Part shown: positions 25,491 through 62,279 of the stretch, piece by piece
Numbering within the stretch: the first letter of the stretch is position 1
Layout: each line of letters starts with the position of its first letter
DNA from: Candidatus Micrarchaeota archaeon
Lineage (GTDB): Archaea > Micrarchaeota > Micrarchaeia > Anstonellales > Anstonellaceae
Assembly (NCBI GenBank): GCA_964392435.1
Contig: CAYMOY010000001.1
Coordinates: 77,259-141,258, forward strand
Direction: 5' to 3'
DNA: 64,000 bases
Position numbers and translations under genes: made by a program
Notes under the pieces: model-generated
The model's input: only the letters and a program-made list of their open reading frames with translations
The model's database searches: none
What the model was told of the DNA's origin: nothing

Positions 25491-25565
25491 GCCGGGCCTT
25501 AAGATGCGCATTGGCATCAGGGAAGGGCAGGCGTTTGCCTTTGCCCCTCAGCCGGATGCTATCGC

Positions 25566-28500
25566 GTGAAGGAGAATATTCGCATGGCGGCCAATGACAT
25601 TTTCCCCAGTTTCGTCGAATGCAGCCGGCAGGCTCGTGAAATCGAGCGCAAACTGCTGCCAGTCAAGCCTTCGCAGATTTCAGGCAAGCTCCGCCCGGAA
25701 GGCTCCACACAGATATTTCCCCGCGAGTTTGAGGAATACACCGTTGCTTACCTTGTTTCCGAGGCGCAAAAAGTAGAGCGCAAGCTTTTCGCCGCCAATT
25801 ACCAATCGGCTCCAAATGTCTCCGTGGCGCAAGCTTCTTCCAAGGTTGAGCTTGGGCAGAAAGTGGCAGATGAGCTGGGCCAGTTTGCCTCAGGGGCAGC
25901 CCAACAGCCTGGCTATCAAACCACGCCCAAGGTGCCAGGCATTCCCGCCAAAAAAGATGCTATCTGGGGCGGGGCAGGTGCTCAGGCTCAGCCAGAGGGG
26001 CCATCCTCGGGGGATGAAAAAATTTCCCCGCCAGCATTGCCATACCAGCAGGGCATTCCATCCGAGGTCCGCATTGCCAAGGAAGCCGAACTTGAGGCCG
26101 AGGCGAAGATGGCAAACGAGTCCGCCCATCACCCTGCGCAATTTGGGGGATATGGAAGCGGCGAGCCTGGCGATGCTTCGCGCAAGCTGCGCTTACAGGA
26201 CCAGCCCTCCTCGTCCGGTCTGATGTCCTCTTCAAAGCTTTCTCCAAGGCTCAGGGCTATAATCGAGGAGAAGCTGAGGAAAGAGGAACAAGCCGCCCAG
26301 GATGCGCCAGTGGAAATAGAAAAAGCATCTTATGAAAAAGAGGAGCAAGAAGAAAAGAATGAAGAGCCTCCCGTGCTCTCCTCGCGAGAGAGGCTGTTGC
26401 GGAAATTGCAGCGCGAAAGGCAGATTAGGGAGGGCGAGGCTCTGCTTCAAGGGCAGGAAAGGCAGCCTGCAAAAGTGCTTCCAAGAAAACTGCAAGAGCC
26501 TGCCGCTGGAGATGAAGAACTGCCTGAGCAAGAAGAGCAGGGGCAGCAGCCAGAGCAAGAGGGGCGGGAAGACTTGCAAAGGCCCCCTGAGGATGAGGAG
26601 GAGATTCAGGAGCAGGAAAGGCAGCCTGCCAGAGTGCTTCCAAGAAAACTGCAAGAGCCTGCCGCTGGAGATGAAGAACTGCCTGAGCAAGAAGAGCAGG
26701 GGCAGCAGCCAGAGCAAGAGGGGCGGGAAAACCAGCAAGAAGAGCAGGAGGTTTCAGGGCAGGCAGAAGGGGCGGAAGAAGAAACCCCCTCGCAAGTGGA
26801 GCAGCCGCTCGAGGTTGCCTCTGCAAAGGCAAGTGCCCCTGCCAAAAGCTCTATTTTGCAAAAGCAGCCTTTGGCATATGGGCAGGTGGCGCAAAAGGGC
26901 GCGTCCGCGCTCCCACCATCATCCCTAAGTTCTGGCAGAATACTCATAAAGCCCATTTTTGCCGGGCAGGAAAACGAGCAGGATGAAAACCAGGGGGCGC
27001 GGGACGATGGGGCGGAAAAAAGGATGGAGCGCATCTCACGCATAGTGCGGGAGCTGTCCCCGGACAGGTACAAGGCGCAGGCAATAGCGAAAAAACCAGA
27101 CGCCTCATCCGAAAAAGGCGATGCAAAGCCTGGCGAACCAGCTGCGCCTTTGCGGATGGAAAAGCGGCCAACCGCAAAACCGGTCCTGAAGAAAAAAGCC
27201 AAAATTCAAGTGAATGAGCAGCAGCCTTGGGAAGAGGCGCAAGAAGAACAGCAGGAGCCCCCATCAGATGCGGAAGGGCCGCAGGGGCAGGAAAACCCGC
27301 AAGAGGAGGCGCAGGAAGAGTCCGAGGTACGGCAAAGGCTCGGCTGGAACCAGCCTCAAGCGAAAAAAAAGCTGGCGCCAAAAGTTTCTGGGAAAAGACA
27401 GGGCGAATTGGCTAATGCGAAGAGAAAGAATTTGCCTGCTGGGGCGCAACAGCAGAAGAAGGCGGGAAAAGCGCAAAAGTCTTTGCCTGCGGCAAAGGAG
27501 CCTTCTGGGGGGAAAATAAGGTCCCAAGACCAGGGCGGTTTCCCTAAGAAGCAGCAGGTGGCTTTGCAAAAGCAGTCAAAATCGCCCCAAACCGCCCGGG
27601 CAAGGCAAGCGGCATCGCCCTCCAAAGAAGTTTTCCAATCCAAATCCCCTCCAATGCAATCAGCAAAGCGGCAGCTGCCACAGCCCCAAAAATCCGTGGC
27701 ATACGCACAACGCGGCACTCCTGTTCAATATCAGGATGAAAGACGCCCTGCCGCATCTTCGAGCCAACCATTGCCGTCCCGCCAAGTTGCGCCTGCTGCA
27801 AACAAGCCTCCAACCGTTTCTCGACCAAGCGTGGCTGCAAGTGCGCGACCAGTTTCACGGCTCTCGCCATATTCCGCGCCGCCTGCCAGGCCTGCCTCCG
27901 GTCCCTCCCTGGGGCGGCCCATCATGCGCCAGGTCCAAGCTCCAACAGCCTATCGCACTTCTCCCCAGCCAATTCCAAGGGCAGGATCCAGGCCGCGCAT
28001 TCTTCCGGGGGGTGCGCAACAGATGGCGCCACAGACATATCTGCCTCCAAGAAGAACGATAATCCGGCCGCAAGCTTTGGGGCAAGAATCTTTGGCTGTG
28101 GGGCAGCCAGAAGAGGATTCGCAACCTATGCGGGAAACTGGCGGATTGCCAAAAAGGCGCGCAGCATATCCGCAGCCTGGCAGTGGCGAGGCTCTGCTTC
28201 AAGGGCAGGAAAGGCAGCCTGCCAGAGTGCTTCCAAGAAAACTGCAAGAGCCTGCCGCTGGAGATGAAGAACTGCCTGAGCAAGAAGAGCAGGGGCAGCA
28301 GCCAGAGCAAGAGGGGCGGGAAAACCAGCAAGAAGAGCAGGAGGTTTCAGGGCAGGCAGAAGGGGCGGAAGAAGAAACCCCCTCGCAAGTGGAGCAGCCG
28401 CTCGAGGTTGCCTCTGCAAAGGCAAGGCTCAGCGCCATATCGCAGGTTTCGGGTCTCAAGCCCAGGAAAAACGTGCTTGACGAGCCGGTGCAAAAGACGC

Positions 28501-28967
28501 CTGAGCAGCTTGAGGAAGAAAAGCGCATTTCTCAAAAAGCGCAGGTGCTCTCGCAGATGGAGGGGCAAAAGCAGCACGAGATATCAGGTTCAGCTTCCCT
28601 TCCTTTGGAAGAGGAAGACTTGGAAGTGCCAAAGCCGCCGCCAGATGATTCCGAATCCGGGCAGCCGGATTACGATACTGCAAAATACGGGCTGCGGCGC
28701 AAGATGCAAGAGGATGACATCCGGGCGAAGACCAAGGAGGAGGTTGAGGCGATAATGGAGGGCTATGCAAAAGATAATCTTGTATGGCTCTATGAAATTT
28801 ATTCCATGGGCGGGATGCCCCGCGAGGACTTCCTGCAAAAAGTAAAGGAGAAAATGGCCGAGGAAAAAATCGCCCTGCCGCAAGTTGGGGGTGAGGAGCC
28901 ACCTCCGCCTTCCAATCCCGCCCTTGCTAATTTGGGCAAGGAAATAGACAAGAGATATAAAAAGTAG
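25566..28967 (+). CDS. Giant low-complexity Q/E/P/A-rich protein with internal repeats inside the pilus operon
   Basis: 1133-aa uninterrupted ORF; short folded-looking termini; start may be ATG at 25584. Confidence 0.8.
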   Translation: MKENIRMAANDIFPSFVECSRQAREIERKLLPVKPSQISGKLRPEGSTQIFPREFEEYTVAYLVSEAQKVERKLFAANYQSAPNVSVAQASSKVELGQKVADELGQFASGAAQQPGYQTTPKVPGIPAKKDAIWGGAGAQAQPEGPSSGDEKISPPALPYQQGIPSEVRIAKEAELEAEAKMANESAHHPAQFGGYGSGEPGDASRKLRLQDQPSSSGLMSSSKLSPRLRAIIEEKLRKEEQAAQDAPVEIEKASYEKEEQEEKNEEPPVLSSRERLLRKLQRERQIREGEALLQGQERQPAKVLPRKLQEPAAGDEELPEQEEQGQQPEQEGREDLQRPPEDEEEIQEQERQPARVLPRKLQEPAAGDEELPEQEEQGQQPEQEGRENQQEEQEVSGQAEGAEEETPSQVEQPLEVASAKASAPAKSSILQKQPLAYGQVAQKGASALPPSSLSSGRILIKPIFAGQENEQDENQGARDDGAEKRMERISRIVRELSPDRYKAQAIAKKPDASSEKGDAKPGEPAAPLRMEKRPTAKPVLKKKAKIQVNEQQPWEEAQEEQQEPPSDAEGPQGQENPQEEAQEESEVRQRLGWNQPQAKKKLAPKVSGKRQGELANAKRKNLPAGAQQQKKAGKAQKSLPAAKEPSGGKIRSQDQGGFPKKQQVALQKQSKSPQTARARQAASPSKEVFQSKSPPMQSAKRQLPQPQKSVAYAQRGTPVQYQDERRPAASSSQPLPSRQVAPAANKPPTVSRPSVAASARPVSRLSPYSAPPARPASGPSLGRPIMRQVQAPTAYRTSPQPIPRAGSRPRILPGGAQQMAPQTYLPPRRTIIRPQALGQESLAVGQPEEDSQPMRETGGLPKRRAAYPQPGSGEALLQGQERQPARVLPRKLQEPAAGDEELPEQEEQGQQPEQEGRENQQEEQEVSGQAEGAEEETPSQVEQPLEVASAKARLSAISQVSGLKPRKNVLDEPVQKTPEQLEEEKRISQKAQVLSQMEGQKQHEISGSASLPLEEEDLEVPKPPPDDSESGQPDYDTAKYGLRRKMQEDDIRAKTKEEVEAIMEGYAKDNLVWLYEIYSMGGMPREDFLQKVKEKMAEEKIALPQVGGEEPPPPSNPALANLGKEIDKRYKK
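26433..26570 (+). repeat. Intragenic repeat copy 1 (138 bp)
   Basis: Near-identical to 28185-28322; encodes GEALLQGQERQPAKVLPRKLQEPAAGDEELPEQEEQGQQPEQEGRE. Confidence 0.9.
26612..26833 (+). repeat. Intragenic repeat copy 2 (222 bp)
   Basis: Appears identical to 28205-28426 by manual comparison. Confidence 0.9.
28185..28426 (+). repeat. Intragenic repeat copy 3 (242 bp)
   Basis: 5' end matches copy 1; the remainder matches copy 2. Confidence 0.9.
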
Positions 28968-28995
28968 TGCCTAACAATTAATATAGAGGGAATGC

Positions 28996-29931
28996 ATGGC
29001 TGAAAACAAGGCAGGTCTGGCAAACGCTTCAAATTCAAAATCAAAGGTCTCCCAGCCGCTTATCACCCAGCCAATGAGGGATGTGGAAGGGCCGCAGGAC
29101 CCCTCCCAATTCAGGAATCTCATGCGTTCGCTGGCATCCCATTTTCCTGACTTGCGCAAGGACCTGGTGCGCGCAGACATGCAGTATACGCCAGCCGGGT
29201 TTGTCCAGTCCGCCCTCATAAATGCAATAACAATAGCCCTGGTCCTGCTCGTAATCGCCTATCTTTTCCTGCGCGGGCAGGAAATGGCGCCATTTCTGAT
29301 ACTGCTTCTTGCCCCAGTGTTTCTTTTCCTGGCTTTCTTCTACGCGATGTATTTTCCGAAGGCAAGGGCCCGCATGAGGGCAAAGCGCATGGAACAGGAG
29401 CTGGTGTTTGCGGGAAGGCACATGCTAATCGAGCTCAAAAGCGGAGTGCCCCTGTTCGACGCTATGCTGGGCATCTCTCAGGACTACGGCGAAATATCTG
29501 TGGAGTTCAACAAGATTGTGGAAAAAGTGACGCTGGGCGTTCCGCTTGGCGTGGCGCTGCACGAGGTTGCGGAGACCAACCCCTCCCAGTACTTCAAGCG
29601 GGTCATCCTCCAGGTGGCGAACTCGCTTGCATCAGGCTCGGATGTCGCAGCCGCCCTGGAAGCCGCGCTGGACCAGATTTCGCGCGAACAGGCAATAGAG
29701 CTTAAGGCATACGGGCAGAAGCTCAACCCCATTGTGATGTTCTTCATGATATTCGGGATAATCCTCCCTTCGCTTGGCATAGCATTCCTGATAATACTGG
29801 TGTCCTTCCTGGGCTCATCAGTCTCATTCGGCCCAACCGCGCTTTTCGGAGTGCTGCTTGCCATCGGGCTGGTGCAATTCATCTTCCTGACAATGGTTGA
29901 GGGTTCCAGGCCGAAGTTCGATATAGTATGA
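28996..29931 (+). CDS. Type II/IV secretion F-family (TadB/C) platform protein
   Basis: HMLIELKSGVPLF, EFNKIV...LGVPLGVAL, ELKAYGQKLNP, TM helices. Confidence 0.88.
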   Translation: MAENKAGLANASNSKSKVSQPLITQPMRDVEGPQDPSQFRNLMRSLASHFPDLRKDLVRADMQYTPAGFVQSALINAITIALVLLVIAYLFLRGQEMAPFLILLLAPVFLFLAFFYAMYFPKARARMRAKRMEQELVFAGRHMLIELKSGVPLFDAMLGISQDYGEISVEFNKIVEKVTLGVPLGVALHEVAETNPSQYFKRVILQVANSLASGSDVAAALEAALDQISREQAIELKAYGQKLNPIVMFFMIFGIILPSLGIAFLIILVSFLGSSVSFGPTALFGVLLAIGLVQFIFLTMVEGSRPKFDIV

Positions 29932-29940
29932 TGTGGTTCG

Positions 29941-31011
29941 ATGTCCAACGTTCTTTATGAAATGATCGGGCGGCTCTTCTCGCGCAGCCAGATGCGCAAG
30001 CTGGGGTTATTGCTTGAAACTTCCGGCATAAATTTCGTGCCAGAGGCATTCGCAGGCTTCATAGTGATACTTTCAGTTGTCCTATCCATTTTTACCTATC
30101 TGCTGCTCTCATCCATCTCAACCACCCGCAGTTTCATGTTCAGGCTTTCCTCAATGCTCTCGCCAGGCCTGACGCTCCAGTCGCCTGACTTTTTCCTCAT
30201 CGTTTCAGTTATTTTCTCAGTCCTGATTGCGACAGGATCGCTGCTGCTGGTTGTTTATGTCTGGCTGATGCTGCGGGCGGACAGCAGGCGCAGGAATGTT
30301 GAGGAGGTGCTGCCGGACTTCCTATCGCTTTCCGCAGCCAACGTTCGGGCGGGAATGACAATCGACCAGGCGATGTGGTATGCCGCAAAGCCCGAGTTTG
30401 GCATACTCTCGGTTGAAGTTGCTACGGTGGCGAAAAAGACATTCGGCGGGGTTCCGTTCAACCAGGCTGTCGACTACCTGACTGACAGGTTCAATTCCAA
30501 GTCAATCCGCAGGTCCGTGGCCCTCATCAAGCAGGGCATGGCATCCGGCGGGCAGCTTGCAGACATACTTGAGAGGACTGCGGAGGATGCCAGGCAGATG
30601 CATGTGCTCCAAAAGGAGATAGCCGCTTCGCTTCTGATGTATGTGATATTCATCGTCTTCGCAGGCGCCCTCGGCACCCCATTCCTATTTGCCATCTCCG
30701 GCAAGCTGGTGGGCATGCTGGAAAACGTGTTTGCCACGCTGCCAACCGACACTTCATCGTTTGCCGGCTCAATGCAGACACCCCTAATATCCGCGAGCCG
30801 CTCAGCAATCTCATCATCCGACTTTTTCCTCTTCACCATACTCTCATGCATAATGACCGCGATTTTTTCCGCTCTGATAATAGGGGTGATTTCCAAGGGG
30901 AGCAAAAGGGACGGCGTGCCTTACTTGCCATTCCTCCTGGTTGCTTCTCTGGCGATTTTCTTAATTGTCAGCGCCCTTCTGGACAGTTTCCTCTCCAATA
31001 TTTATGTATGA
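29941..31011 (+). CDS. Type II/IV secretion F-family (TadB/C) platform protein
   Basis: LPDFLSLSAANVRAGMT, GGQLADILERTAED, TM helices. Confidence 0.88.
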   Translation: MSNVLYEMIGRLFSRSQMRKLGLLLETSGINFVPEAFAGFIVILSVVLSIFTYLLLSSISTTRSFMFRLSSMLSPGLTLQSPDFFLIVSVIFSVLIATGSLLLVVYVWLMLRADSRRRNVEEVLPDFLSLSAANVRAGMTIDQAMWYAAKPEFGILSVEVATVAKKTFGGVPFNQAVDYLTDRFNSKSIRRSVALIKQGMASGGQLADILERTAEDARQMHVLQKEIAASLLMYVIFIVFAGALGTPFLFAISGKLVGMLENVFATLPTDTSSFAGSMQTPLISASRSAISSSDFFLFTILSCIMTAIFSALIIGVISKGSKRDGVPYLPFLLVASLAIFLIVSALLDSFLSNIYV

Positions 31012-42649: not shown

Positions 42650-43888
42650 TCATACATCTATCGTTTCCCCAAGCGAAGGGGCGTATGCTTCAAAGCCCTC
42701 CAGCTTCAGCTCCTCTGCGAACTGTGGGCAGGCATCTCCGTGCATGCATAGAACACGGTCGGGCTTGAGCTTCTCGCAAAGCTCGAACAACTCTTTGCGC
42801 CCGGCGTGCGCCGAGAAATCCAGGTAGGAGTATTGCGCCTTGGGCGTTATTTTCACGCCATCATACTCCACAAATCCCTTGTTGAGCAGATTGTAGCCAT
42901 TGGTCTCCTCCACGCAATAGCCAGTGAAAATCGCGCGGGATTCTGGCTCCATCTGCAAAAGGTAGGAAAGCGCGGGCCCGCCCTGCAGCATTCCCGCGGT
43001 GGCTATTATCACGCAGGGGCGGCGCAGCACCTTTTTCCTGTCGTTCTTGTGCAATATAGGGGTGCAGGTCGCCATGTCCTGCCTGAAGCGCTTGAAATCC
43101 TTTGTGTATGCCGAATAATGCGCCAGCTCGTCTGATACCCTCCAGCCCATGCCGTCCACGAATATCTCCACGTCATGGTTGACCGAGCGGACAATGCGCA
43201 CCAATTCCTGCGTCCTGCCTATCGCGAACGCAGGGAAAAGCACGGTGCCACCCTGCTCCAGCGTTTCGGTCATCTGCCTGCCAAGCTCAGTCTCCAGCTC
43301 CTTTCTTGGCGGATGGTCCCTCTGCGCATAAGTGCTTTCCACCATCAGCACATCGGGCTCCTTGCGCGGAGGTTCGGATGCGAAGGTGGTCTTGGTCTCC
43401 TCGCCCTTGAAATCTCCGGAGTAAACCACTCGCTTGCCATCCATTTCCAGCTCTATCATGGATGCTCCGGGTATGTGGCCGGCATTGTGCAGCGTTACTG
43501 AGGCCCCGCCAATCTCATGGACTTTTCGATAAGACAGGTGCGTTGTGTTCTGTTCCATCCTCCTAACATGGCTTGACTTGAAAGGAAACTCGCCGCGCTT
43601 TGCCATTATCCTGATGGAGTCCTCTATTATTATCTTCCCGAGGGCAAGGGTTGGCGGGGTGCAAATAAGCTCCGGAGTGCCTTTCTTGAAAAGGGATGGT
43701 AGGAAACCGGTGTGGTCCAAATGCGCGTGCGAAGCCACCACAAAATCCGGTATGTGGGGGGGTGCAAGCGGCAGGGTGCTGTCCGAATGTATCTTCAGCC
43801 CGCAATCAAACATGACGTTCTCTTCCCCTGCGACAAGAACGCTGCTCCTTCCGACTTCCTGCGCTGCCCCAAGAAACGTTATCTCCAT
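42650..43888 (-). CDS. Beta-CASP metallo-beta-lactamase ribonuclease (KH-less aCPSF-like)
   Basis: FLGAAQEVGRS, SHAHLDH, AGHIPGA, YSGDF, ESTY, FSAHA, MHGD; start refined. Confidence 0.92.
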   Translation of the reverse strand: MEITFLGAAQEVGRSSVLVAGEENVMFDCGLKIHSDSTLPLAPPHIPDFVVASHAHLDHTGFLPSLFKKGTPELICTPPTLALGKIIIEDSIRIMAKRGEFPFKSSHVRRMEQNTTHLSYRKVHEIGGASVTLHNAGHIPGASMIELEMDGKRVVYSGDFKGEETKTTFASEPPRKEPDVLMVESTYAQRDHPPRKELETELGRQMTETLEQGGTVLFPAFAIGRTQELVRIVRSVNHDVEIFVDGMGWRVSDELAHYSAYTKDFKRFRQDMATCTPILHKNDRKKVLRRPCVIIATAGMLQGGPALSYLLQMEPESRAIFTGYCVEETNGYNLLNKGFVEYDGVKITPKAQYSYLDFSAHAGRKELFELCEKLKPDRVLCMHGDACPQFAEELKLEGFEAYAPSLGETIDV

Positions 43889-44092
43889 AGGAAAGGCTTC
43901 GGGTGCTAAGGCTATAAAGGCATGCGGCTTTGGCAAAAAGGGCTCGCATCTGAATTTGGGAAAATGCTCGCACATCATATGCCCTGCCCATCAGGCCGTA
44001 TCGCCCTGCTGCGCTTTCCCGCATGGCTTATCGGCGCAGATGGCATGCCCCCATAGGTTAAGCTCTTAAAAGTTAGCGCCCAATTCCATCAG

Positions 44093-52621: not shown

Positions 52622-53287
52622 TTGACTGCTGGGAAAAAGCCAAAAATATTTGTGGACAACCGCGAGCCCGATGGGGTGTGCGACGCCCTGGAGGCTGCCG
52701 GCGCTGAAATAGAGATTTCCCAGCTTTCGCTTGGCGACTACCAGGTCTCAGACCGCCTAGTTGTGGAGAGGAAAACGCGGCAGGACTTCGAGTCCTCCAT
52801 AGTGGACGGCAGGCTTTTCTCCCAAGCCACAAGCCTGTCCGCCTCGGTGCCCCGCGCAGTCATCATCGTTGAAGGCTCCCCTGACTCCGAATCGCGCCTT
52901 TCCCGTTCAGCCCTGCTGGGCGCATACTCTTCCCTTATAGCCGACCTGGGCTGCTCGATTTTCTTCACCCGCTCGCCCTCGGCAACAGCCGAGCTGGTCT
53001 TCGCGCTTGCCTGCCACGAGCAGTTTTCGAAAAAACAGCCTCTCTCAGTATATGCAAAGCGCCGCTTCCGCACCCTTTCCGAGCAGCAGCGTGCTGTGGT
53101 GGAGGCGCTTCCAAGCGTTGGTCCCACCCTGGCCCGCGCCCTCTTGGAATACTTCGATACGATTGAAAATGTGATGGGCGCGCCTGAAAGCGAGCTTAGG
53201 GCGGTGGGCAAAATCGGGGAAAAAAAGGCAAAGGCGCTGCGGCAGCTTCTTACCAGCCGCTACAAAGCCGAGCAGGACCTGCCTTAG
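52622..53287 (+). CDS. Short-form XPF/ERCC4 nuclease with HhH
   Basis: VDNRE, GDY, VERKTRQDF, LPSVGPTLA, IGEKKA. Confidence 0.92.
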   Translation: MTAGKKPKIFVDNREPDGVCDALEAAGAEIEISQLSLGDYQVSDRLVVERKTRQDFESSIVDGRLFSQATSLSASVPRAVIIVEGSPDSESRLSRSALLGAYSSLIADLGCSIFFTRSPSATAELVFALACHEQFSKKQPLSVYAKRRFRTLSEQQRAVVEALPSVGPTLARALLEYFDTIENVMGAPESELRAVGKIGEKKAKALRQLLTSRYKAEQDLP

Positions 53288-53407
53288 TCTTCCCGATGGC
53301 ATCTTATCCAGCTATAGCCATTAAATATAACTTTTTTACAGTCAGCTATATAAGCTTCTTCGCCGTAAAAGCGGGCTATTGTCTATTTGCAGTTGAAAGG
53401 TGGTAAT

Positions 53408-53920
53408 ATGGACGAAAAAATACTCAAAATAGTCGCTGGAAAGCTTCGCCACTACGAAGGTCAGCCCATCAGCCAGGAGCGCCTTGAGGCCATACGCTCC
53501 GCGGTATATTCGGCAACCAAGACCAACAAGTTCGCATCATTTTCCAACGTGAAAAAGTGGATAAAGGCAGCGCGGGGGATGATGAAGCGGCAGGACAATC
53601 AGGCGAAGAAAGCTGCAAAGAAAGTGGGCAAGGCCAAGCCTTCTCATCACGTCCTCCACGCGCACTTCGCGCCAGTCCGCGAGGTGGCGATACCCGAGGT
53701 TTCCCGCAAGGTGGAAGACTCGGTCAACCTGATAAAGGAAGAGGCCGCGCCAGTCCCTCCCATGCAGGAGGTCGCACTGCCCAAGCCCCAGATTGTCTTC
53801 GACAAGATTTATCTGCAGAGCATCAAGTTCGAGATTGCTGGCATCCGCCAGACCATGGAGCGGGTCAGCAGGCAGCTTGACAAGATGGAAAGGGAGCTTA
53901 CCTCACACGCCGAGGATTAA
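53408..53920 (+). CDS. Hypothetical protein with C-terminal coiled coil
   Basis: ORF preceded by GGTGGT SD-like element and TATA-like tracts. Confidence 0.65.
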   Translation: MDEKILKIVAGKLRHYEGQPISQERLEAIRSAVYSATKTNKFASFSNVKKWIKAARGMMKRQDNQAKKAAKKVGKAKPSHHVLHAHFAPVREVAIPEVSRKVEDSVNLIKEEAAPVPPMQEVALPKPQIVFDKIYLQSIKFEIAGIRQTMERVSRQLDKMERELTSHAED

Positions 53921-54075
53921 AGCGCAACTGCCCGGAGCCTCTGCCAATCCGGATGGCATCTTCTCTCCCGATTCCCCCGGGTTTTCCATCCCGTTGCGCC
54001 AGACAGCCAATCCCCTGCCATTTGGCAGCATAGTCATCCTTTTATTGTTTCCACACGTTCTTTTTCTGCGATCAG

Positions 54076-55062
54076 ATGCTGCGGCAGGGCAAGCTTGAAG
54101 TTGATGGTATAAGGATAGCCTTAGATGACGCCAGCTCAGACGTGTGCTTTGTCTCTCATGCGCACACAGACCACACCGCCGCATTTTCCAAAAAGCGGAG
54201 CATAATCGCGTCTGATGAGACATTCATGCTTTTGGGAAGCGAGCCCTCATCATGCCCCTTGCCGGGCGGGTTGAGCATTCACCCTGCTGGGCATATGCTG
54301 GGCGCCCGCCAGCTGCGGGCAGAAACGCCTTCAGGGGTGTTCGTCTATACGGGCGATTTTTCCCTCCATCAGTCATACACCGTTCCTGCAGCCTCGATTC
54401 TCCAGTGCGACACCCTGATGATAGATTCCACATACGCCCTGCCCCATCTCCGCCTTCCAAGCAGGCATGAAACATCCCGGAAAATGGCGCATTTTGTGAA
54501 GGAGAATGAAGGCAGGATATTGGTGTTTGGCGCCTATATCCGGGGGAAGACGCAGGAGCTGGTGCGCTTCCTCAACATCGAGTGCTCTGTCTCGCCAATA
54601 GTGAGCGCGCCTGCTGCAAAGCTATGCGGCATATATGAAAAATGCGGGGTCAGGCTGGATTATATAGAGGCAGGCACTTCCGAGGGGGAGGAGGCAATGC
54701 GTTCGCCTTTTGTGGCAATAATGCCCTCCGGCATGGTGAATTTTTCATTCGGCTCCAGGCTCTCAGAGGCATTCGGGCGAGAGGTTCGGACCTCGCTGGC
54801 GACCGGCTGGGCAACAGTTTCGCGCTTCCCTGTGGATGCGGCTTTCCCATTTTCCGACCATGCCGATTTTCGCGACACCATGCGCTATATATACGACTCT
54901 GGCGCGAAAAGGGTAATCTGCGCCAACTCAAGCGAGGCAGAAGCCGCCTCGTACCTGCGCACACTTGGGATAGACGCAATCGCCAAGTCTGAAATGAGGA
55001 TGGAAACGCAGACGACCCTGGCAAAGGCATGGGGCGAGCCCCAGGCAGCGCTGAGGATTTAA
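54076..55062 (+). CDS. Metallo-beta-lactamase / beta-CASP-type exonuclease
   Basis: FVSHAHTDH, PAGHMLGA, YTGDF, IDSTY, FSDHADF. Confidence 0.88.
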   Translation: MLRQGKLEVDGIRIALDDASSDVCFVSHAHTDHTAAFSKKRSIIASDETFMLLGSEPSSCPLPGGLSIHPAGHMLGARQLRAETPSGVFVYTGDFSLHQSYTVPAASILQCDTLMIDSTYALPHLRLPSRHETSRKMAHFVKENEGRILVFGAYIRGKTQELVRFLNIECSVSPIVSAPAAKLCGIYEKCGVRLDYIEAGTSEGEEAMRSPFVAIMPSGMVNFSFGSRLSEAFGREVRTSLATGWATVSRFPVDAAFPFSDHADFRDTMRYIYDSGAKRVICANSSEAEAASYLRTLGIDAIAKSEMRMETQTTLAKAWGEPQAALRI

Positions 55063-55089
55063 ATCTTATTCGGTAATTCAGACGGAAAG

Positions 55090-55428
55090 GTGATTTTCAT
55101 GGCATCCAAGGCGCAAAAGGACGACTTACTAGGCGAGATAAGCGGAAAGGTTCTGCTTTACGGCAACGGGCTGGATGCATCGGGTGAAATAATACTTTGC
55201 GAAGGGGGCTTGATAGTGCGGGCCGAGGGCAACACCATCAAGGCGCCTTTCAGGTATGTGACTATGTTTGAAAAAAGCAAGGAGCTGCCGCTTGGCAAGG
55301 TCGGCGTGGAAATGGATGTCTATGACCAATCCGGCATAAAGCATTACTTCCATGTGGGCATGGCGGAGCAGCATTTCGTTGCGCTCAAAAAGGCGATTTT
55401 GGGCAAGGAAAAGCAAAGCCAAGAATAG
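55090..55428 (+). CDS. Hypothetical small protein (possible PH-like fold)
   Basis: 112-aa beta-rich ORF with terminal helix. Confidence 0.6.
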   Translation: MIFMASKAQKDDLLGEISGKVLLYGNGLDASGEIILCEGGLIVRAEGNTIKAPFRYVTMFEKSKELPLGKVGVEMDVYDQSGIKHYFHVGMAEQHFVALKKAILGKEKQSQE

Positions 55429-55525
55429 GATTTTATACTCTAGCTGAGGAATGGGGCTTATGTCAAAAATGCGCAAGCAGGCGACTGAGTGCCATCCGGG
55501 CACTTCTTGCCTGAAAGGTCGGGCA

Positions 55526-56056
55526 GTGATTGAGTTGCCTGCGGCAACTGCTCACCGCCTGCGCGGGCAGGCTATGATGGAATATCTGGTGACCTACGGA
55601 TGGGCGCTTTTGGCGCTTTTCCTGGTGATCGCATTGCTTTTGGCCTCCGGCGCATTCTCTCCAAACAGCTTCTCAGTGCAGGAATGCACTTTCCAGCCAG
55701 GACTGCCTTGCTCCCCGTTCATAATCTACAAAAATTCCAGCAGCGGCCAAACCGTGCTGCGCTTCACCCTGGCAAACGGCTTGGGATTCCCGATAAACGT
55801 GACTGGGGTGAACTATACTGTCACCGACCTTGGTGCTGAAGGGCGGCGTCAGATTTCTGGCATCGTTCCGTCAAGTTATGCGGTTTCGCAGGGCAGCAGC
55901 ATGAACTTCGAGCAGAACTTCTCAGGCCCCAGCCAGCCAGAGCCCAAGACATTCAGGACAATCTACGCCACGATTTTCTACATCAACTGCAAGAATTCTG
56001 TCTGCAGCGGGCCTTACCAGTCTTCGGGCAGGATTTCAGCCGTTGTGGAAGGCTAG
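55526..56056 (+). CDS. Second archaeal type IV pilin
   Basis: RLRG^QAMMEYLVTYGWALLALFLVIALLL; start GTG at 55526 or TTG at 55535. Confidence 0.85.
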   Translation: MIELPAATAHRLRGQAMMEYLVTYGWALLALFLVIALLLASGAFSPNSFSVQECTFQPGLPCSPFIIYKNSSSGQTVLRFTLANGLGFPINVTGVNYTVTDLGAEGRRQISGIVPSSYAVSQGSSMNFEQNFSGPSQPEPKTFRTIYATIFYINCKNSVCSGPYQSSGRISAVVEG

Positions 56057-56306
56057 CAAAGGGCGCTGAGGGGCGATTTTGCCCCAAATCAAAACCCAAC
56101 ACAACATGGCCAGTCAACAAAGTCAGTCGGCCCAAACAGGCTCAAACGGTTACTTTTTGAGCAAGGCTCGCTGCGGCGCACTTTTTTAAATTCTAACCTC
56201 GTATTTTGCCTTGCAGGATGCGGCAGGCGGCCAATGGTTCTGTAAACAGGCACCGAGGCGAGTTTCCGCAGTCTGTGAAAGGCGACACAACAAAGGTAGA
56301 AAACCA

Positions 56307-59300
56307 ATGGTTTATATCAGGGGCTTGAAATTCCGCGGTTTCAAGTCATTCCGCCGCGCAGAAGCGAACTTCCCCCAGGGATACGTCTGCCTGGCAGGTC
56401 CGAACGGAAGCGGCAAAAGCAACGTGACAGACGGCATACGCTTCGCACTTGGGGAGGGCAGCCTCAAGGCGCTGCGCGCCAAGAAAGTTTCCGAGCTTAT
56501 CAACACCTCCTCCAGCTTCGGCGAGGTGACCCTTTACATCGATGGCGAGCGGCAGTATGAGATACGCCGGGCGATAAAGGTTGATGGCAAGGATGTCAAG
56601 ACCTTGTACCGGATAAACGGCAAGCGCTCCACGCGCACGCTGGTGATGGAGGAATTGCGCCCCTATGGGCTTGAAAGCGGCAGCCACAACATAATCGCGC
56701 AGGGGCAGGTGCAAAAAATAGTCGAAATGTCCTCCAAGGAGCGAAGGCAGATAATAGACGGAGTTGCTGGCATTTCTGAGTATGATGCGAAAAAAGACGA
56801 GGCGCTAGGCGAGCTTGCCCGCGTGGATGCCAAGATAAACGAGGCAAACGTGGTGCTGGGTGAGAGGCAGGGGCTTCTGACCGAGCTTGAGCGCCAGAAG
56901 GCGGAGGCGCTCTCCTACATGGAGGCCCAGGAGAATTTCCGCCGTTCCAAGGCTTCAATGGTGAACGCGGAATACTCGAAGCTCAACCGACAGCACACTG
57001 ATACTGTCCAGAAATACGCAGCCATAAAATCGGAATCCGACGAGCTTGAGCGCCAGTCCTCGGTGCTATCTTGCCGGCTAGGCGAATTGGCTGCGCAGCA
57101 GAAAACAGTCACCGACAAGATAACCTCAAGCGGCAGCCGCGAGGCCGCCATGCAGGATATATCTTCTCTCAAGGAATCGATAGGTTCGGACAGCGCCACT
57201 CTCTTGGCTCAGAAAAAGGAGATCGAGCGTCTGGAATCGCTGCTGGCTGCGCTTCACTCCCAAGTGGAATCCGCCCGCAAATCGCAAAAGGAAACCTCAT
57301 CTCAAAGCAAGCTGTTATCCGACCAGATCTCGGAGGTATCCTCCAAAATTGCCGAGCTTGAGAAAAAAACCACATCTGGCAACATCCAGCATGAGGAGAT
57401 TGCATCCCGCCTCGAATCGCTCTCCTCGAAAATAGTCTCGCTCAAGGAGCAAAAGGCATCTTCCGAAACATCGCTTCGCAGCGCCGAGAAGATGCTTGAG
57501 ATGAAAAGGCAGGAAAAAGACAGGCTCTCTTCAGCTGTTGGCAAGATTGCCGATGAGAAGCTCTCAGGAGAAGCTTCGATATACAAAAAGGAAATACTGT
57601 CGCTGCAATCAGAGCTGGACGCGCTTTTCGATTCTGAAAAAGAGATAAACCGCTCGCTGCCAGAAGTGGAGAAACGGCTTTTCTCGGCAAAGGACAGGGC
57701 AGCTACGCTTCGCGCCTCCATAGCCCCTTCAGCATCAAGCATGGCGGTGCGCGCAGTTGAGGAAATGAAGCAGAATGGGATGAAGGGGATTTACGGGCAA
57801 GTGGCGTCCCTTCTCACCTGCGACCCGAAGCACTCGATTGCAATTGAGGCTGCTGCGGGGCAGCGCCTCTCATACGTTGTGGTGGACAACACCGCAACCG
57901 CAATGAAGGTAATTGACAAGCTCAAGGAGGGCAGGAGCGGCCGTTGCACCATAATCCCGCTGGACCTTCCGCGCCTTTCATCCAGGGAAAAGCCTGAAAA
58001 AGGGGCCGGCTGCTTAGGCCCCCTCCTGGATTTTGTGGAATATGACGCTGCGTTCCAGCCAGCAATGGACTATGTCTTCTCAGACACCCTGCTTTACGAT
58101 ACGGCGCCAAACGCGCGCAAGGGGGGCTACGGCAGATGCAGGATGGTTACTCTGGAAGGCGAGCTTTTCGAGCGCTCCGGTGTCATCACGGGCGGCTCAA
58201 TGAAAGGCTCTCTCCTCTCAAAATCCGCACTTGACAAGGTGGAATCCGAAGCAGAATCTCTCAAGAAGGAAAAAGACGCGCTTTTTGCCCGGCTGTATTC
58301 CCTCCGCGAGGAGATGAACGCCAAGCGAAGGGAAAAGGCGGAGGCGGAAGTCAAGCTCAAGGGGCTTGAGATAGAGATGAAGACCGCGGAGGAAAAGAGG
58401 TCCAGCCACAAACAGGCTCTCGAGGCCATAGGTGAAATAGAAAAGGAAATCCTGGCAACGGACCTTGAAATGTCCCGCATCAAAAAGTCATCCGAGCTCC
58501 TGCAGTCGCAGCTCCTATCCTCGATTTCTGAGCATGAATCCCTCAAAGGGAGGCTTTCCTCCGAGCAGGAAAAAGCGAAGAAAGCGGATGTTGAGTCAAA
58601 CAAGAAGCTGACTTCTTTGCACTCATTGCGCTCCTCGCTTGACGCGCAGCTGAAGGCCAAAAACGATGAGTTCGAGAGGCTATCGGCGTTTTATTCGGAA
58701 AAGGAAAAGGAGTCGAAAGGCGCGCAGGAGGAGCTTTTCGAGTGCAGAAAGCAGGTTTCAGCCCTGCAAAAGCTCATCTCTGAGAACACCAAACTGCTCC
58801 AGGAAAAGGAAGCCAAACTTTCGGAGTTGAGCGCAAGCAGCAGCAAGCTCATGGCCAAGCTCAAGGAAATAGAGGGGCAGTCTGCAGAGCTTGCGCAGCA
58901 AATGGGCAAACTCAAAGTGGAAATCGACCGCAAGGCTCGCGAGATTATGGAATTGGAAGTGCGCCGCCAGACTGCGGAGACGCGGCTGGTTGACCTTAAG
59001 GCTGCGCTTGAGGAGTATTCCGGGGTTCCGACCATCGATGCAAGCAGGCAGGAACTGGAGGCGCTTGCCAAAAAGAGCGAGGAGACGATGAATTCACTTC
59101 CCACGGTAAATCTCAAGGCGCCTGAACTTTATGATCAGAAGAAAAAGGAAATAGACGACATACGCACCCGCGTGAATTCTCTGGACTCGGAGAAAAAAGC
59201 GGTCTTCCACATGATGGACGAGATAGAGGCGAAAAAGCGCGCAATCTTCATCTCATCATTCACTGCGGTAAACGACAACTTCAAGCGCCTGTTCTCCTAT

Positions 59301-59714
59301 GTTTTCAAAGGCGAGGGCACGCTGCTTTTGGAAAATCCCTCGAGCCCATTCGACTCAGGTCTGCTGGTGAAAGTGCGCGACGAGGGGCACGAGAAATATC
59401 TGGATTCCATGTCTGGCGGGGAAAAATCCCTGCTTGCGCTCATATTCATCTTTTCCATACAGATGCACAAGGCAGCCCCATTCTACATACTTGACGAGGC
59501 TGACGCTGCCTTGGACAAGGAGAATTCCAAGAAGCTGGCCGACCTGATACGCCAGCTTGCCGGGAAAACCCAATTCATAGTGGTCACCCACAACGACACC
59601 ATTCTTTCGAATGCCGATGTCGCGCTCGGGGTCACTCGCACAGAGGACGGCTCAAAAATAGTCGGGGTGCAGCTCACTTCGGCGGCGGTCGTGGCGCGCC
59701 AGAAAAAAGCCTAA
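56307..59714 (+). CDS. smc: Chromosome segregation protein Smc
   Basis: FKSF, GPNGSGKSN, hinge GIYGQV, MSGGEKS, LDEADAALD; start refined. Confidence 0.97.
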   Translation: MVYIRGLKFRGFKSFRRAEANFPQGYVCLAGPNGSGKSNVTDGIRFALGEGSLKALRAKKVSELINTSSSFGEVTLYIDGERQYEIRRAIKVDGKDVKTLYRINGKRSTRTLVMEELRPYGLESGSHNIIAQGQVQKIVEMSSKERRQIIDGVAGISEYDAKKDEALGELARVDAKINEANVVLGERQGLLTELERQKAEALSYMEAQENFRRSKASMVNAEYSKLNRQHTDTVQKYAAIKSESDELERQSSVLSCRLGELAAQQKTVTDKITSSGSREAAMQDISSLKESIGSDSATLLAQKKEIERLESLLAALHSQVESARKSQKETSSQSKLLSDQISEVSSKIAELEKKTTSGNIQHEEIASRLESLSSKIVSLKEQKASSETSLRSAEKMLEMKRQEKDRLSSAVGKIADEKLSGEASIYKKEILSLQSELDALFDSEKEINRSLPEVEKRLFSAKDRAATLRASIAPSASSMAVRAVEEMKQNGMKGIYGQVASLLTCDPKHSIAIEAAAGQRLSYVVVDNTATAMKVIDKLKEGRSGRCTIIPLDLPRLSSREKPEKGAGCLGPLLDFVEYDAAFQPAMDYVFSDTLLYDTAPNARKGGYGRCRMVTLEGELFERSGVITGGSMKGSLLSKSALDKVESEAESLKKEKDALFARLYSLREEMNAKRREKAEAEVKLKGLEIEMKTAEEKRSSHKQALEAIGEIEKEILATDLEMSRIKKSSELLQSQLLSSISEHESLKGRLSSEQEKAKKADVESNKKLTSLHSLRSSLDAQLKAKNDEFERLSAFYSEKEKESKGAQEELFECRKQVSALQKLISENTKLLQEKEAKLSELSASSSKLMAKLKEIEGQSAELAQQMGKLKVEIDRKAREIMELEVRRQTAETRLVDLKAALEEYSGVPTIDASRQELEALAKKSEETMNSLPTVNLKAPELYDQKKKEIDDIRTRVNSLDSEKKAVFHMMDEIEAKKRAIFISSFTAVNDNFKRLFSYVFKGEGTLLLENPSSPFDSGLLVKVRDEGHEKYLDSMSGGEKSLLALIFIFSIQMHKAAPFYILDEADAALDKENSKKLADLIRQLAGKTQFIVVTHNDTILSNADVALGVTRTEDGSKIVGVQLTSAAVVARQKKA

Positions 59715-59749
59715 GCCAATAAATGCTTCTCCTCAAGAATCGGGAAAAA

Positions 59750-60829
59750 TCATTTCGCTGCTGTGACTTCGTATATTGAAAATCCGTCGCTATAAACGCG
59801 CACAGTGCCGTCGCGGTCTGTTCTCCACACCTTAATTCCTCGAAGCGAAAGCCGGGTCAGGGCGGTCTGTGAGGGCAGCCCTGCGCTGTTCTCCCCGACA
59901 GATATAATCGCCTGCTCGGGCGGGTAGTTCTCAATAAGAAGAGAGGGGGTGGGCCTTCCCTCGCCATGCTTGAAATATGATATCACCGGGCACTGCAGGT
60001 CGCCGCCCTTGCCAATAAGCGAGCCCTCGACCTCCTGTACGGTCGGATTAAGGAGCAATGCGCAGAAATTGTTGAATGAGATTTTCACCACTATCGAATC
60101 CACGTCCGGATTTCCCCGCATCCTTGGAGTTTGCGGGTTGAGCACGGATATGTCCATGCCGCTGACCGAAACGCTTTCGCCTGCCTGGGGGTGCTTGACG
60201 ACTATCCCCATCTCCTTCACTTTCGCAAGAAGTTCTGAATACTTTGTTGATGCTGGGGCCAGAGCCACCAGGTTAGGGTTCGACTGCACGTCATTCTCCC
60301 AGAATTCCTCCACAGGATAGGCATCCAGGATGTCTGCAATCCCGTCTATCGCCACTGGCGAGTCCCTCGTGGCTACCAGAACATTGAGGTATGTCATGCC
60401 CCTGTTTTTCAAAAATTCAAGCACCTGAGGCGAGCTTCCCGCGTCAATCAACATGTAAAACTCTCCTTTGTTCACAAGCACGGAATCGGAATGCCCGTCA
60501 TCTATGAAATAAATATTCAGGGGGGCCCCTGGCAGCTCGTTTATCCTGAACTGCCCGTCCGCTATCCTGTCCGACTGGTTGCGGGGGGGTATTCCTGCGA
60601 AGGGGTCTGGCCGCTCAATCGGCTTTATAGTGGTCTTGTTCTGGCGTATCACAGTCTCATTTTTAGCGGCATTGCTATGGTTGGCAGTCGTATTCTGGCC
60701 GAATGCTGTGCCATTTTGTGGCGCAACCTGCGCAGGTTTTTTCGGTTCAGGGGGATTCTGCTCCCATGGCATGGCACAGCCCGCGAAAAGCAGGACGCAA
60801 ATCGCAAGCAATGCCGCAAAGGCCTTCAT
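59750..60829 (-). CDS. Lipoprotein with ComEC-type metallo-beta-lactamase fold, metal ligands lost
   Basis: Lipobox LLFAG^C; LIDAG; DSIVVK; IISVGENSAGLP; WRTDRDGTV; HxHxDH replaced by RDSPVA. Confidence 0.8.
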   Translation of the reverse strand: MKAFAALLAICVLLFAGCAMPWEQNPPEPKKPAQVAPQNGTAFGQNTTANHSNAAKNETVIRQNKTTIKPIERPDPFAGIPPRNQSDRIADGQFRINELPGAPLNIYFIDDGHSDSVLVNKGEFYMLIDAGSSPQVLEFLKNRGMTYLNVLVATRDSPVAIDGIADILDAYPVEEFWENDVQSNPNLVALAPASTKYSELLAKVKEMGIVVKHPQAGESVSVSGMDISVLNPQTPRMRGNPDVDSIVVKISFNNFCALLLNPTVQEVEGSLIGKGGDLQCPVISYFKHGEGRPTPSLLIENYPPEQAIISVGENSAGLPSQTALTRLSLRGIKVWRTDRDGTVRVYSDGFSIYEVTAAK

Positions 60830-60920
60830 TTTCGCGCTTTCGCAAGCCAGGTTTTAATCCCTTGCGGATTGGTTTGGCCCCCACCCTCCCCTGCGCGCCG
60901 CAAGACCTGCGTGCCATTGC

Positions 60921-62279
60921 CTAAAGCACCCCAAAATACCTTTCCTTTTCCCAGGGGGTTACCTGCGTCTTGTAACAATTCCAGTCCTTCTTTTGTATTT
61001 TCAGCAAATATTCGGTGGTGTGGGCGCCCAAAGCCTCTGTGATAACCTTGTCCGCTGCGAATTCCTTGCTGGCTTCGACAAGCGATCCGGGCAGGGTGCC
61101 TATGCCAAGCAGTCTGCGTTTCTCCTCCTCATATCCGTACACCCTTTCCTCAACCGCTTTTGGCGGAACCAATTTGTTCTGTATCCCGTCCAGACCTGCC
61201 GCAAGCATAGCCGCAAAGGCAAGGTAAGGGTTGCAGGAGGGGTCGGGAAAGCGGCATTCTATCCGCGTTCCCTTTTCCTTGCCGGCAAGATTCCTGGGTA
61301 TCCTTATGAGTGCCGAGCGGTTAACCCTGCCCCAGCAAATGTATACTGGCGCCTCGTAGCCAGGCACCAGCCTCTTATACGAGTTCACAGTGGGGTTGGT
61401 GATTGCCGCAAGCGCCCTGGCATGCTCCATTATCCCGGCGATGAAGCTCAAGCCTGTGCTGGAAAGCCAGTATTCGTTGCTGCCATCGTAAAATAGGTTT
61501 TTGTCCCCCTCCCAAAGCGACTGGTGGACGTGCATCCCTGAGCCGTTTATTCCGAAAACCGGCTTGGGCATGAATGACGCGTATAAGCCGTATTTTTTCG
61601 AAAGCGTCTTCACAGTTGTCTTGTATGTGAGCACAGAATCCGCTATGGAAAGCGCGTTTCCATACTTAAAGCCAATCTCGTGCTGGCCTTGGGCGACCTC
61701 GTGGTGGCTGCGCTCTATGGTCATTCCCATCTTCTCAAGAGCAGGGACTATCTCCTGCCTCAGTTCCACCGCCTCGTCGCGCGTGGCCAGGTCGAAGTAG
61801 CCCGCATTGTCATGCACCTGGGCTGCTTCCGGGTCCCCATTCCCGTTCATCCCCTTGAATATGAAAAACTCAAGCTCCGGGCCAACCTTGTAATCAAAGC
61901 CCATTTTCTTGGCACGGGCAAGCTGGCGCTTGAGTATGCTTCTTGGGTCCCCGGCAAAAGGCGTCTTCTCGTCCACATAAACATCGCAAATAAGCCTCGC
62001 AGTCCTGTTGCCAGTCCAGGGCAATGTCGCCCATGTGGACGTGTCAGGCACAAGAAACATGTCCGATTCGGCAATTCTGGCAAATCCTTCGATGGATGAC
62101 CCGTCGAACCAGGTGCCGTCGCTCAGCACGTCCTCAAGCCGCTTTGCCGTTATCTCGCACATCTTGGGTGCGCCTTGTATGTCCACGAATTCCAAGTCGA
62201 CAAACTCTACTCCCTTTTCCTTGGCTTCGGAAAGCAGCCGCCCTATCTCCTCTTTTGGAATATCCCCCAGCATAAACAT
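60921..62279 (-). CDS. glnA: Glutamine synthetase type I
   Basis: FDGSSIEG, GPELEFF, HHEVAQGQHEI, FMPKP, NGSGMHVHQSL, RIECRFPDP. Confidence 0.98.
   Translation of the reverse strand: MFMLGDIPKEEIGRLLSEAKEKGVEFVDLEFVDIQGAPKMCEITAKRLEDVLSDGTWFDGSSIEGFARIAESDMFLVPDTSTWATLPWTGNRTARLICDVYVDEKTPFAGDPRSILKRQLARAKKMGFDYKVGPELEFFIFKGMNGNGDPEAAQVHDNAGYFDLATRDEAVELRQEIVPALEKMGMTIERSHHEVAQGQHEIGFKYGNALSIADSVLTYKTTVKTLSKKYGLYASFMPKPVFGINGSGMHVHQSLWEGDKNLFYDGSNEYWLSSTGLSFIAGIMEHARALAAITNPTVNSYKRLVPGYEAPVYICWGRVNRSALIRIPRNLAGKEKGTRIECRFPDPSCNPYLAFAAMLAAGLDGIQNKLVPPKAVEERVYGYEEEKRRLLGIGTLPGSLVEASKEFAADKVITEALGAHTTEYLLKIQKKDWNCYKTQVTPWEKERYFGVL

Follow-up and report, generated by a model that had tools for sequence, protein, structure and literature searches.

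The subject of this study is a gene from a Candidatus Micrarchaeota archaeon (GenBank assembly GCA_964392435.1) that lies in a 64,000-nucleotide stretch of contig CAYMOY010000001.1, hereafter the window, whose positions are used throughout. The gene is one intact open reading frame (ORF) on the reverse strand, 59750-60829, which encodes 359 amino acid residues between an ATG at 60829 and a TGA at 59750-59752. Its product is predicted to be a surface lipoprotein with a metallo-beta-lactamase (MBL) fold of the ComEC type, of which the metal ligands are replaced by other residues, and is referred to here as the pseudo-MBL protein. The features of the gene in the direction of translation are as follows.

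60852-60858 (-): TATA-like box ATTAAAA, 23-29 nt 5' of the ATG, predicted from sequence
60776-60829 (-): Sec-type signal peptide, residues 1-18, with the lipobox L-L-F-A-G-C18 at its end and Cys18 as the predicted archaeol thioether anchor
60599-60775 (-): stalk of low complexity, rich in P/N/T/Q, residues 19-77; it has five N-x-S/T sequons (N39, N46, N50, N57 and N64) and is predicted to be disordered and N-glycosylated
60521-60598 (-): pre-domain segment PRN(x)SDxIxDGxFxI, residues 78-103, modelled as packed on the domain with a predicted local distance difference test (pLDDT) score of 94-97
59753-60520 (-): ComEC-type MBL-fold domain, residues 104-359, from homology search, AlphaFold2 and Foldseek
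60341-60373 (-): motif II relic, A153-T-R-D-S-P-V-A-I-D-G163 for S-T-H598-P-D600-A-D602-H603-I-G-G
60062-60064 (-): Cys256, first half of a family-specific Cys pair, disulfide predicted
60026-60058 (-): motif IV relic, L258-L-L-N-P-T-V-Q-E-V-E268
59990-59992 (-): Cys280, second half of the Cys pair, disulfide predicted
59951-59977 (-): motif V relic, Y285-F-K-H-G-E-G-R-P293
59870-59881 (-): G317-L-P-S320 in place of G-H-P
59745-59752 (-): TGA stop with a T5 run immediately after it, a putative terminator signal of archaeal type inside the 35-nt gap to smc

ComEC ancestry and predicted surface anchor

[quoted passage not shown] A match to NCBIfam TIGR00361 (6e-10, 37.9 bits vs a cutoff of 190) was confined to the C-terminal positions 442-663. 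The AlphaFold2 model, which was built on 77 sequences and contained no beta-CASP insertion, had a mean pLDDT of 86.8 and exceeded 90 across most of residues 71-359. Its top Foldseek match was also 9ic4, with an E value of 3e-20 and a template-modelling score (TM) of 0.84 on the target, followed by Pce, a surface phosphorylcholine esterase (E 1e-12), and then by many other MBLs. Given that phmmer, TIGR00361, AlphaFold2 and Foldseek agree, the predicted fold is MBL and its nearest relative is the ComEC nuclease domain, as an earlier note on this DNA had read from the intact scaffold.

The pseudo-MBL protein is, however, not a ComEC, as channel, OB fold and metal site are all missing. The ComEC channel domain PF03772 was not found in this protein of 359 residues, which has a single N-terminal hydrophobic segment, and tblastn with channel-bearing ComEC proteins gave matches only via their MBL part. 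Pfam gave no match to the OB fold (DUF4131), and the N-terminal 100 residues consist of the signal peptide, the disordered linker and the short conserved segment. Even at E <= 1, no MBL model of Pfam (PF00753 Lactamase_B or related) matched the protein.

The N-terminus, MKAFAALLAICVLLFAGC, is a Sec-type signal peptide with a lipobox at Cys18. The sequence LLFAG-C18 follows the lipobox pattern [L/V/I][A/S/T/V/I][G/A/S]C, though with F instead of L/V/I at position -3; the family consensus is LLFGC. A lipobox was found in 60 of the 76 family members having an N-terminus. In addition, the deposited start of the member P0009 (L003 7930-8001) is miscalled, and an in-frame ATG 54 nt upstream adds MRSALVLLAILIILLGCS, which supplies a signal peptide and lipobox. 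Several members without a lipobox carry an N-terminal transmembrane helix in its place. Thus, membrane tethering is kept across the family even where the device differs, and the pseudo-MBL protein very probably sits tethered at the cell surface. The lipidation enzyme AliA was reported in DPANN archaea (PMC12462473).

The lipobox and the N/T/Q-rich linker that the earlier note had placed before the domain were both recovered. Together with the pre-domain segment, the linker holds six N-x-S/T sequons (N39, N46, N50, N57, N64 and N84), of which N84 is largely conserved (N in 58/74 members). The pLDDT of the stalk ranged from 45 to 62 in the AlphaFold2 model. Across the family, sequons are about four times denser in the linkers than in the domain (4.9 vs 1.2 per 100 residues). 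Residues R83, S86, I89, G92 and F94 of the pre-domain segment are each at least 90% conserved. The MBL domain itself is acidic, with an isoelectric point (pI) of 4.7 and a net charge of -11; the family median pI is 5.1. Moreover, all 81 core members have both C256 and C280; of 82 canonical sequences, only 3 and 9, respectively, have Cys at these positions. The two residues probably form an extracellular disulfide.

A comparable A/T box is found at equal distance from the start in the orthologous loci L001, L004 and L005. Given the TATA-like box and the T5 run, the pseudo-MBL gene looks like a transcription unit of its own that has a separate promoter and an mRNA with a short leader or none. 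The same pseudo-MBL sequence was also found in two studies, on sludge and food metagenomes, in contigs of three public runs; the ORF differs at one third position and has no indel. As the ORF recurs without an indel in these runs, an assembly artefact was rejected.

Replacement of the metal ligands and conservation of the family

A search of 5.8 billion proteins identified 67 close relatives (41-75% identity, E <1e-70), after which came a gap and then ordinary MBL/ComEC proteins at E 1e-20 and weaker. None of the 67 relatives has a precomputed Pfam domain, and all name-bearing members are Micrarchaeota, Micrarchaeia or Anstonellaceae. With a profile search of 1.84 billion cluster representatives, the family grew to 81 representatives, and 16 loci were recovered from the GTDB species genomes, all 16 of which are from Micrarchaeota. 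No description of this family was found in the literature on ComEC of DPANN/Micrarchaeota and on MBL pseudoenzymes. One fragment, P0126 (173 residues), is a perfect family match in its C-terminal 110 residues (FCALLLNPTVQE ... FKHGEGRS) and has an unrelated helical N-terminus; it is probably a chimera of assembly or gene calling.

In the M. glycerini domain, H598, D600, D602, H603 and D700 are the Mn2+ ligands, and H725 and S728 are putative DNA contacts (PMC12455585). The cofactor of the ComEC domain is Mn2+ by experiment (PMC8579336, PMC12455585) and not Zn, as the earlier note had it. The alignment with this domain was anchored by T154=T597, I161=I604 and G163=G606 and was gap-free around the motifs, with HMMER, MAFFT and hmmalign in agreement. 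The positions compare as follows, with the M. glycerini residue first and the count of the pseudo-MBL residue among family representatives in brackets.

H598, Mn2+ ligand: R155 (70/78)
D600, Mn2+ ligand: S157
D602, Mn2+ ligand and proposed general base: V159
H603, Mn2+ ligand: A160 (74/79)
D700, bridging Mn2+ ligand: P262 (78/81)
H725, putative DNA contact: K287
H726, second His of HHGS: H288, kept (77/81; Q, W or R in the other four)
S728, putative 5'-phosphate contact: E290 (79/81)
His of GHP, conserved in ComEC-type MBLs: L318 (79/81)

The four motif readings of the earlier note (T154-R-D-S-P-V-A160, L259-L-N-P262, K287-H-G-E290 and G317-L-P319) were exact, and so was its statement that the metal ligands are lost, as all five Mn2+-ligand positions are replaced. 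The residues found there (R, S, V, A and P) are unable to coordinate metal and the binuclear metal site appears to be gone; hydrolysis by a binuclear metal centre is therefore excluded as far as can be read from the sequence. In the M. glycerini domain, the mutants H598A, D602A, H603A and D700A were virtually inactive, while the rate was ~5-fold lower for D600A and ~3-fold lower for S728A (PMC12455585). From the mutagenesis of these equivalent residues, nuclease activity is predicted to be absent from the pseudo-MBL protein.

The residues that replaced the active-site motifs are themselves conserved. The substitute motifs ATRD, LLNPTVQE, FKHGEGRP and GLPS are near-invariant in the 81 representatives; in addition to the residues listed above, G289 and P319 are found in 81/81, E268 in 80/81, E266 and R292 in 79/81 each, T263 in 78/81, Q265 in 76/81, N261 in 75/81 and D156 in 76/79. 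The ORF is intact in 18/18 genomic copies. Over the MBL domain, 20 ortholog pairs of the family that were not saturated gave a ratio of nonsynonymous to synonymous substitution rates (dN/dS) of 0.10-0.20; it was taken from these closer pairs, dS between the window gene and its relatives being saturated or undefined. The gene is under strong purifying selection. Because all named members are Micrarchaeota and adjacency with smc is retained, the gene is also stable and vertically inherited.

Similar to the MBL domain of ComEC/Rec2 (M. glycerini BLACT 9ic4; M. thermoacetica C-terminal domain), which has the same fold (E 9e-15, TM 0.84), the pseudo-MBL protein is extracytoplasmic by prediction and possesses the structural motifs LIDAG and YRTD as well as D115, the equivalent of GQGD. 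Different from the ComEC domain, however, it is stand-alone with no channel or OB fold, archaeal, apparently lipid-anchored on a sequon-rich stalk and equipped with an extra Cys pair, and all five Mn2+ ligands and both putative DNA contacts are replaced. The C-terminal domain of Streptococcus pneumoniae ComEC is possibly an inactive MBL with substituted ligands, for which a non-catalytic 'guide' role has been proposed (PMC8579336). It resembles the pseudo-MBL protein in being a ComEC-type MBL with substituted ligands that is retained nonetheless. Its changes are conservative, however (His->Asn, Asp->Glu and Asp->Asn), and may still allow it to bind metal, whereas those of the pseudo-MBL protein (R, S, V, A, P, K, E and L) would not; moreover, it is still within the channel protein.

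CPSF100, INTS9 and the N-terminal half of tRNase ZL are also MBL folds without metal ligands that selection has retained as non-catalytic modules. The pseudo-MBL protein is like CPSF100 and INTS9 in combining ligand loss with retention under purifying selection. These proteins and the tRNase ZL half are intracellular, possess a beta-CASP insertion and are obligate partners of an active paralog; no active paralog was found near the pseudo-MBL gene in the 64-kb window. In principle, the pseudo-MBL protein would work as these MBL pseudoenzymes and possibly the pneumococcal domain do, but would differ from them in being stand-alone, extracellular and lipid-anchored, archaeal and not visibly paired with an active paralog.

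Bacterial stand-alone ComEC-type MBLs annotated as 'MBL fold metallo-hydrolase' (e.g., P0068-P0073 and P0125-P0217) are exported, often with a lipobox, and homologous over the whole domain (E 1e-20 to 1e-36). Unlike the pseudo-MBL protein, they keep 8-9 of the nine ligands, are mostly without the Cys pair and bear bacterial accessory modules. Partial ligands were found only in distant genes at the same genomic position; the His ligands, whose retention in orthologs the earlier note had named as contrary evidence, are not kept in any of the 81 close representatives. One such gene, the W-type P0097, adjoins an smc gene whose product is 43% identical, has TTFESDK as motif II, keeps D700 and shares HGEGRP and GLPS with the family. 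Another, P0092, adjoins an smc gene with a 45% identical product, possesses NHANEH, SD, AHGS and GYP and keeps 4 of the nine ligand positions. P0097 and P0092 occupy the position of the window gene and are probably orthologs of it.

Among the 217 best profile hits, the Cys pair and the lipobox mark a clade with ligand scores of 0-6/9, and proteins scoring 8-9/9 almost never carry the Cys pair. In a neighbour-joining tree, which was rough, without support values and indicative only, the core family was monophyletic and sister to the W-type clade. Both were nested among partly liganded forms, and two fully liganded proteins with the Cys pair fell just outside, beside liganded relatives. The graded ligand scores and the nesting in the tree suggest that an active exported nuclease was eroded in steps and that a new motif set then became fixed.

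Six representatives from two subfamilies (P0028, P0025, P0078 and P0079; W-type P0120 and P0121) contain an extra Cys-containing all-beta domain of ~180 residues between the lipobox and the MBL domain, and two of these fusion genes are in the same smc-adjacent position (L013 and L021). AlphaFold2 modelled the extra domain of P0028 as an 11-strand beta structure (pLDDT 75-87), which matched RseB (5e-9), MucB and LolA (1e-7) in Foldseek with TM of 0.45-0.58. Pfam identified no OB, HhH or other accessory domain in ten members with long N-termini.

Genomic neighbourhood

The surroundings of the pseudo-MBL gene are housekeeping, and other neighbours in the window include genes for an Lrp/AsnC regulator and a translin-like protein. 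The genes that bear on the discussion below are as follows.

23958-25490 (+): T2SSE ATPase of a type IV pilus/archaellum-like locus
25566-28967 (+): ORF of 1133 residues in the same locus, no Pfam match
28996-29931 and 29941-31011 (+): two T2SSF platform proteins of the same locus
42650-43978 (-): beta-CASP/RMMBL MBL ribonuclease (aCPSF or RNase J-like), matching standard MBL Pfam models
54076-55062 (+): protein of 328 residues with intact SHAHTDH and DHADF motifs, no signal peptide and no Pfam match at 1e-3
55451-56056 (+): pilin-like gene with a type IV pilin-like (class III) signal, RGQAMMEYLVTYGWALLALFLVIALL; in all Micrarchaeota loci it lies directly upstream of smc
56211-59714 (+): smc, convergent with the pseudo-MBL gene across a 35-nt gap
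60921-62279 (-): glnA, upstream neighbour of the pseudo-MBL gene

In every related locus having enough flank, the pseudo-MBL gene is tail-to-tail with smc. Upstream of it is either glnA or a pair of ERCC4 and o177, a gene for 177 residues. A single inversion separates these arrangements, which belong to two groups of Micrarchaeota genomes; it covers the block [o328-o112-o201-smc-pseudo-MBL], in which o328 encodes the 328-residue protein, o112 a protein of 112 residues and o201 the pilin-like protein, as found by comparing window positions 52622-62279 with L004, L005, L010, L014 and L017-L019. Because one inversion moved the whole block, the conserved adjacency with smc reflects synteny and not shared function; a functional link to smc was rejected, the two genes being convergent and carried together by the single block inversion. 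Across loci, the identities ranged from 42 to 56% for the pseudo-MBL protein, compared with 59-66% for SMC and 70-88% for GlnA. Evolution faster than that of neighbouring genes is usual for a surface protein.

The pilin-like gene lies in the same conserved block, 3.7 kb from the pseudo-MBL gene, on the opposite strand and beyond smc. Its signal is conserved in L001 (KGQTMMEYLVTYGWALL), and the ORF at 55451-56056 had no Pfam match. The listed start of this ORF is probably too far upstream, as orthologs have ~169 residues. A link of the pseudo-MBL gene to the T2SSE/T2SSF locus was rejected as a genomic argument, the locus being 29 kb distant.

In all related loci, the gene for the 328-residue protein is conserved upstream of smc (58-69% identity), and its product is a candidate MBL or beta-CASP-like nuclease. 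The ribonuclease at 42650-43978 is the only other MBL in the window recognised by Pfam, a cytoplasmic protein without relation to the ComEC type. As to an active ComEC-type paralog, which the earlier note had thought worth seeking, tblastn of the 64-kb window found none, and no ComEC channel either; the only other MBLs were those at 42650-43978 and 54076-55062.

The kleisin gene scpA (8862-9791, -) is 46 kb from smc, for which the genes upstream of it, encoding an MBL-like, a 112-residue and a pilin-like protein, are unusual company. L004 and L005, two contigs of GCA_041659465.1, have the same synteny from ERCC4 to the pseudo-MBL gene and smc, and their MBL domains are 84% identical; they are probably two related strains binned together rather than paralogs. 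L005 contains extra genes between o177 and the pseudo-MBL gene.

Possible functions of the pseudo-MBL protein

On balance, we lean slightly towards the pseudo-MBL protein being a conserved, Micrarchaeota-specific surface pseudo-nuclease that acts as a non-catalytic binding module. With its Sec signal and lipobox, the mature protein would be tethered to the membrane via Cys18, and the sequon-rich stalk of ~60 residues, presumably N-glycosylated, would hold the globular part off the membrane. This globular MBL domain has its ancestry in the Mn2+-dependent ComEC nuclease domain. Since conservation in the family is highest in the active-site loops and purifying selection on the gene is strong, the former catalytic cleft may still be a working surface, serving as a binding pocket or docking site and not as a hydrolytic centre. 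R155, K287 and R292 probably take up the room that the metals left and are paired with D115, D156, E266 and E290. The ligand would be something common to all Micrarchaeia, such as an envelope component, a host-derived molecule or a partner protein, with DNA being less likely. A common ligand rather than a host-specific adhesin epitope is suggested because this surface is invariant across Micrarchaeia of groundwater, lakes and sludge.

Several points weigh against a binding module. Lipidation, glycosylation and the disulfide are all predictions, and both the binding role and the ligand are what we infer. The clustering of the conserved residues in one cleft comes from homology to the ComEC motifs and not from measured distances. 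No RNA run contains the pseudo-MBL sequence. Moreover, the conserved polar residues D156, N261, T263, Q265, E266, E268, H288, E290 and R292 would also fit a rebuilt catalytic site.

Such a rebuilt enzyme, which we consider unlikely, would have a new centre of carboxylates and His/Lys/Arg (D156, E266, E268, H288, K287, E290 and R292) and might use Mg2+, Ca2+ or no metal to act on an extracellular substrate, e.g., a phosphodiester, glycan or lipid head group. The near-invariant polar residues on all four former active-site loops, the new acidic residues beside each lost ligand, the dN/dS of 0.1-0.2 and the retention of H288 in 77/81 are consistent with it. Yet four otherwise intact members have Q, W or R in place of H288, which hence is not essential, and the ligand positions V/G159, A160, P262 and L318 cannot coordinate metal. 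In addition, the distant same-position genes show piecemeal loss and no switch to one alternative site, and to our knowledge no MBL-fold hydrolase works without a His/Asp metal site. The second structural neighbour, Pce, is an esterase on a cell-wall polymer and in that respect favours an enzyme. Pce/CbpE of S. pneumoniae (2bib and 1wra; E 1e-12), attached to the surface, is an MBL whose substrate is an envelope polymer and not nucleic acid. Different from the pseudo-MBL protein, however, Pce keeps an intact binuclear Zn site and choline-binding repeats, and the identity between the two is only 15-16%.

Two more specific forms of the binding module, whose probabilities are part of that given to it as a whole, concern the ligand. 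The first, that the pseudo-MBL protein recognises a head group or envelope component and in some lineages works with a fused LolA/RseB-like barrel, for instance in acquiring host lipids or lipoproteins or in docking on the host envelope, seems to us quite unlikely. DPANN archaea are generally without lipid synthesis, and the six fusion representatives with their RseB/MucB/LolA matches, two of them beside smc, provide a modest hint; Pce, an MBL acting on teichoic-acid phosphocholine, is again the second-best structural neighbour. On the other hand, the window protein and most members are without the LolA-like domain, the AlphaFold2 model of that domain was built from only six sequences, and no lipid-related gene is linked to the locus. 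LolA-like domains are also common in lipoproteins of many functions.

The second, that the dead nuclease binds extracellular DNA and delivers it to an uptake system or pilus, the way suggested for the C-terminal domain of pneumococcal ComEC, is in our view slightly less likely still. Descent from a DNA nuclease, the pneumococcal precedent and the basic residues R155, K287 and R292 introduced into the old site speak for it, as do the T2SSE/T2SSF genes at 23958-31011 and the pilin-like gene at 55451-56056 in the conserved block. DPANN archaea, moreover, depend on scavenged nucleotides. However, with its net charge of -11 and pI of 4.7, the domain has nothing to offset its charge once the metals are lost, and Ser728, the putative 5'-phosphate contact, is now a conserved Glu. 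DNA affinity in ComEC comes from the OB fold, the MBL domain alone having little (PMC12455585). No DNA-binding accessory domain was found by Pfam among the ten members with long N-termini, the sole accessory domain modelled is LolA/RseB-like, and in the 64-kb window there is no ComEC channel and the T2SSE/T2SSF locus is 29 kb off. The DNA-receptor and pilus ideas are thus mildly disfavoured by the sequence data. Of the earlier proposal of a surface pseudo-nuclease serving as a DNA receptor or adhesin together with the pilus, the first half agrees with the lipobox or transmembrane anchor and the ligand loss, while the second half found no support here.

Finally, a former nuclease gene that is functionless and drifting to loss, to which the loss of all catalytic residues could point if taken alone, has next to no probability: as the earlier note had argued from the full-length ORF, decay is excluded by the ORFs intact in 18 loci and 81 representatives, the dN/dS of 0.10-0.20 and the invariant substitute motifs, and the gene position is kept even where SMC is only 59-66% identical.

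The genomes of Micrarchaeota and other DPANN archaea are tiny, and these organisms depend on other archaea or live attached to them; few of the surface proteins behind this dependence are known. Because it is smc-adjacent in every recovered Micrarchaeota locus, strongly constrained and very probably surface-exposed, the pseudo-MBL protein is a concrete candidate for biochemical and cryo-electron tomography work in the few cultivated co-cultures. A broader scenario, possible though doubtful, is that a DPANN lineage converted an exported ComEC-type nuclease stepwise into a non-catalytic surface receptor for host docking or for the capture of host lipids, envelope components or nucleic acids, which became a core, vertically inherited symbiosis protein with intermediate states alive in sister lineages. 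The interest would be higher if the protein indeed belongs to the symbiont-host interface.

The family also offers a natural series from hydrolase to pseudoenzyme, from relatives with 9/9 ligands through same-position genes with 4-6/9 to fully substituted, constrained motifs. Some sources annotate members of the family as 'competence protein ComEC'; this annotation is misleading and should not be counted as evidence of natural competence in DPANN genomes.

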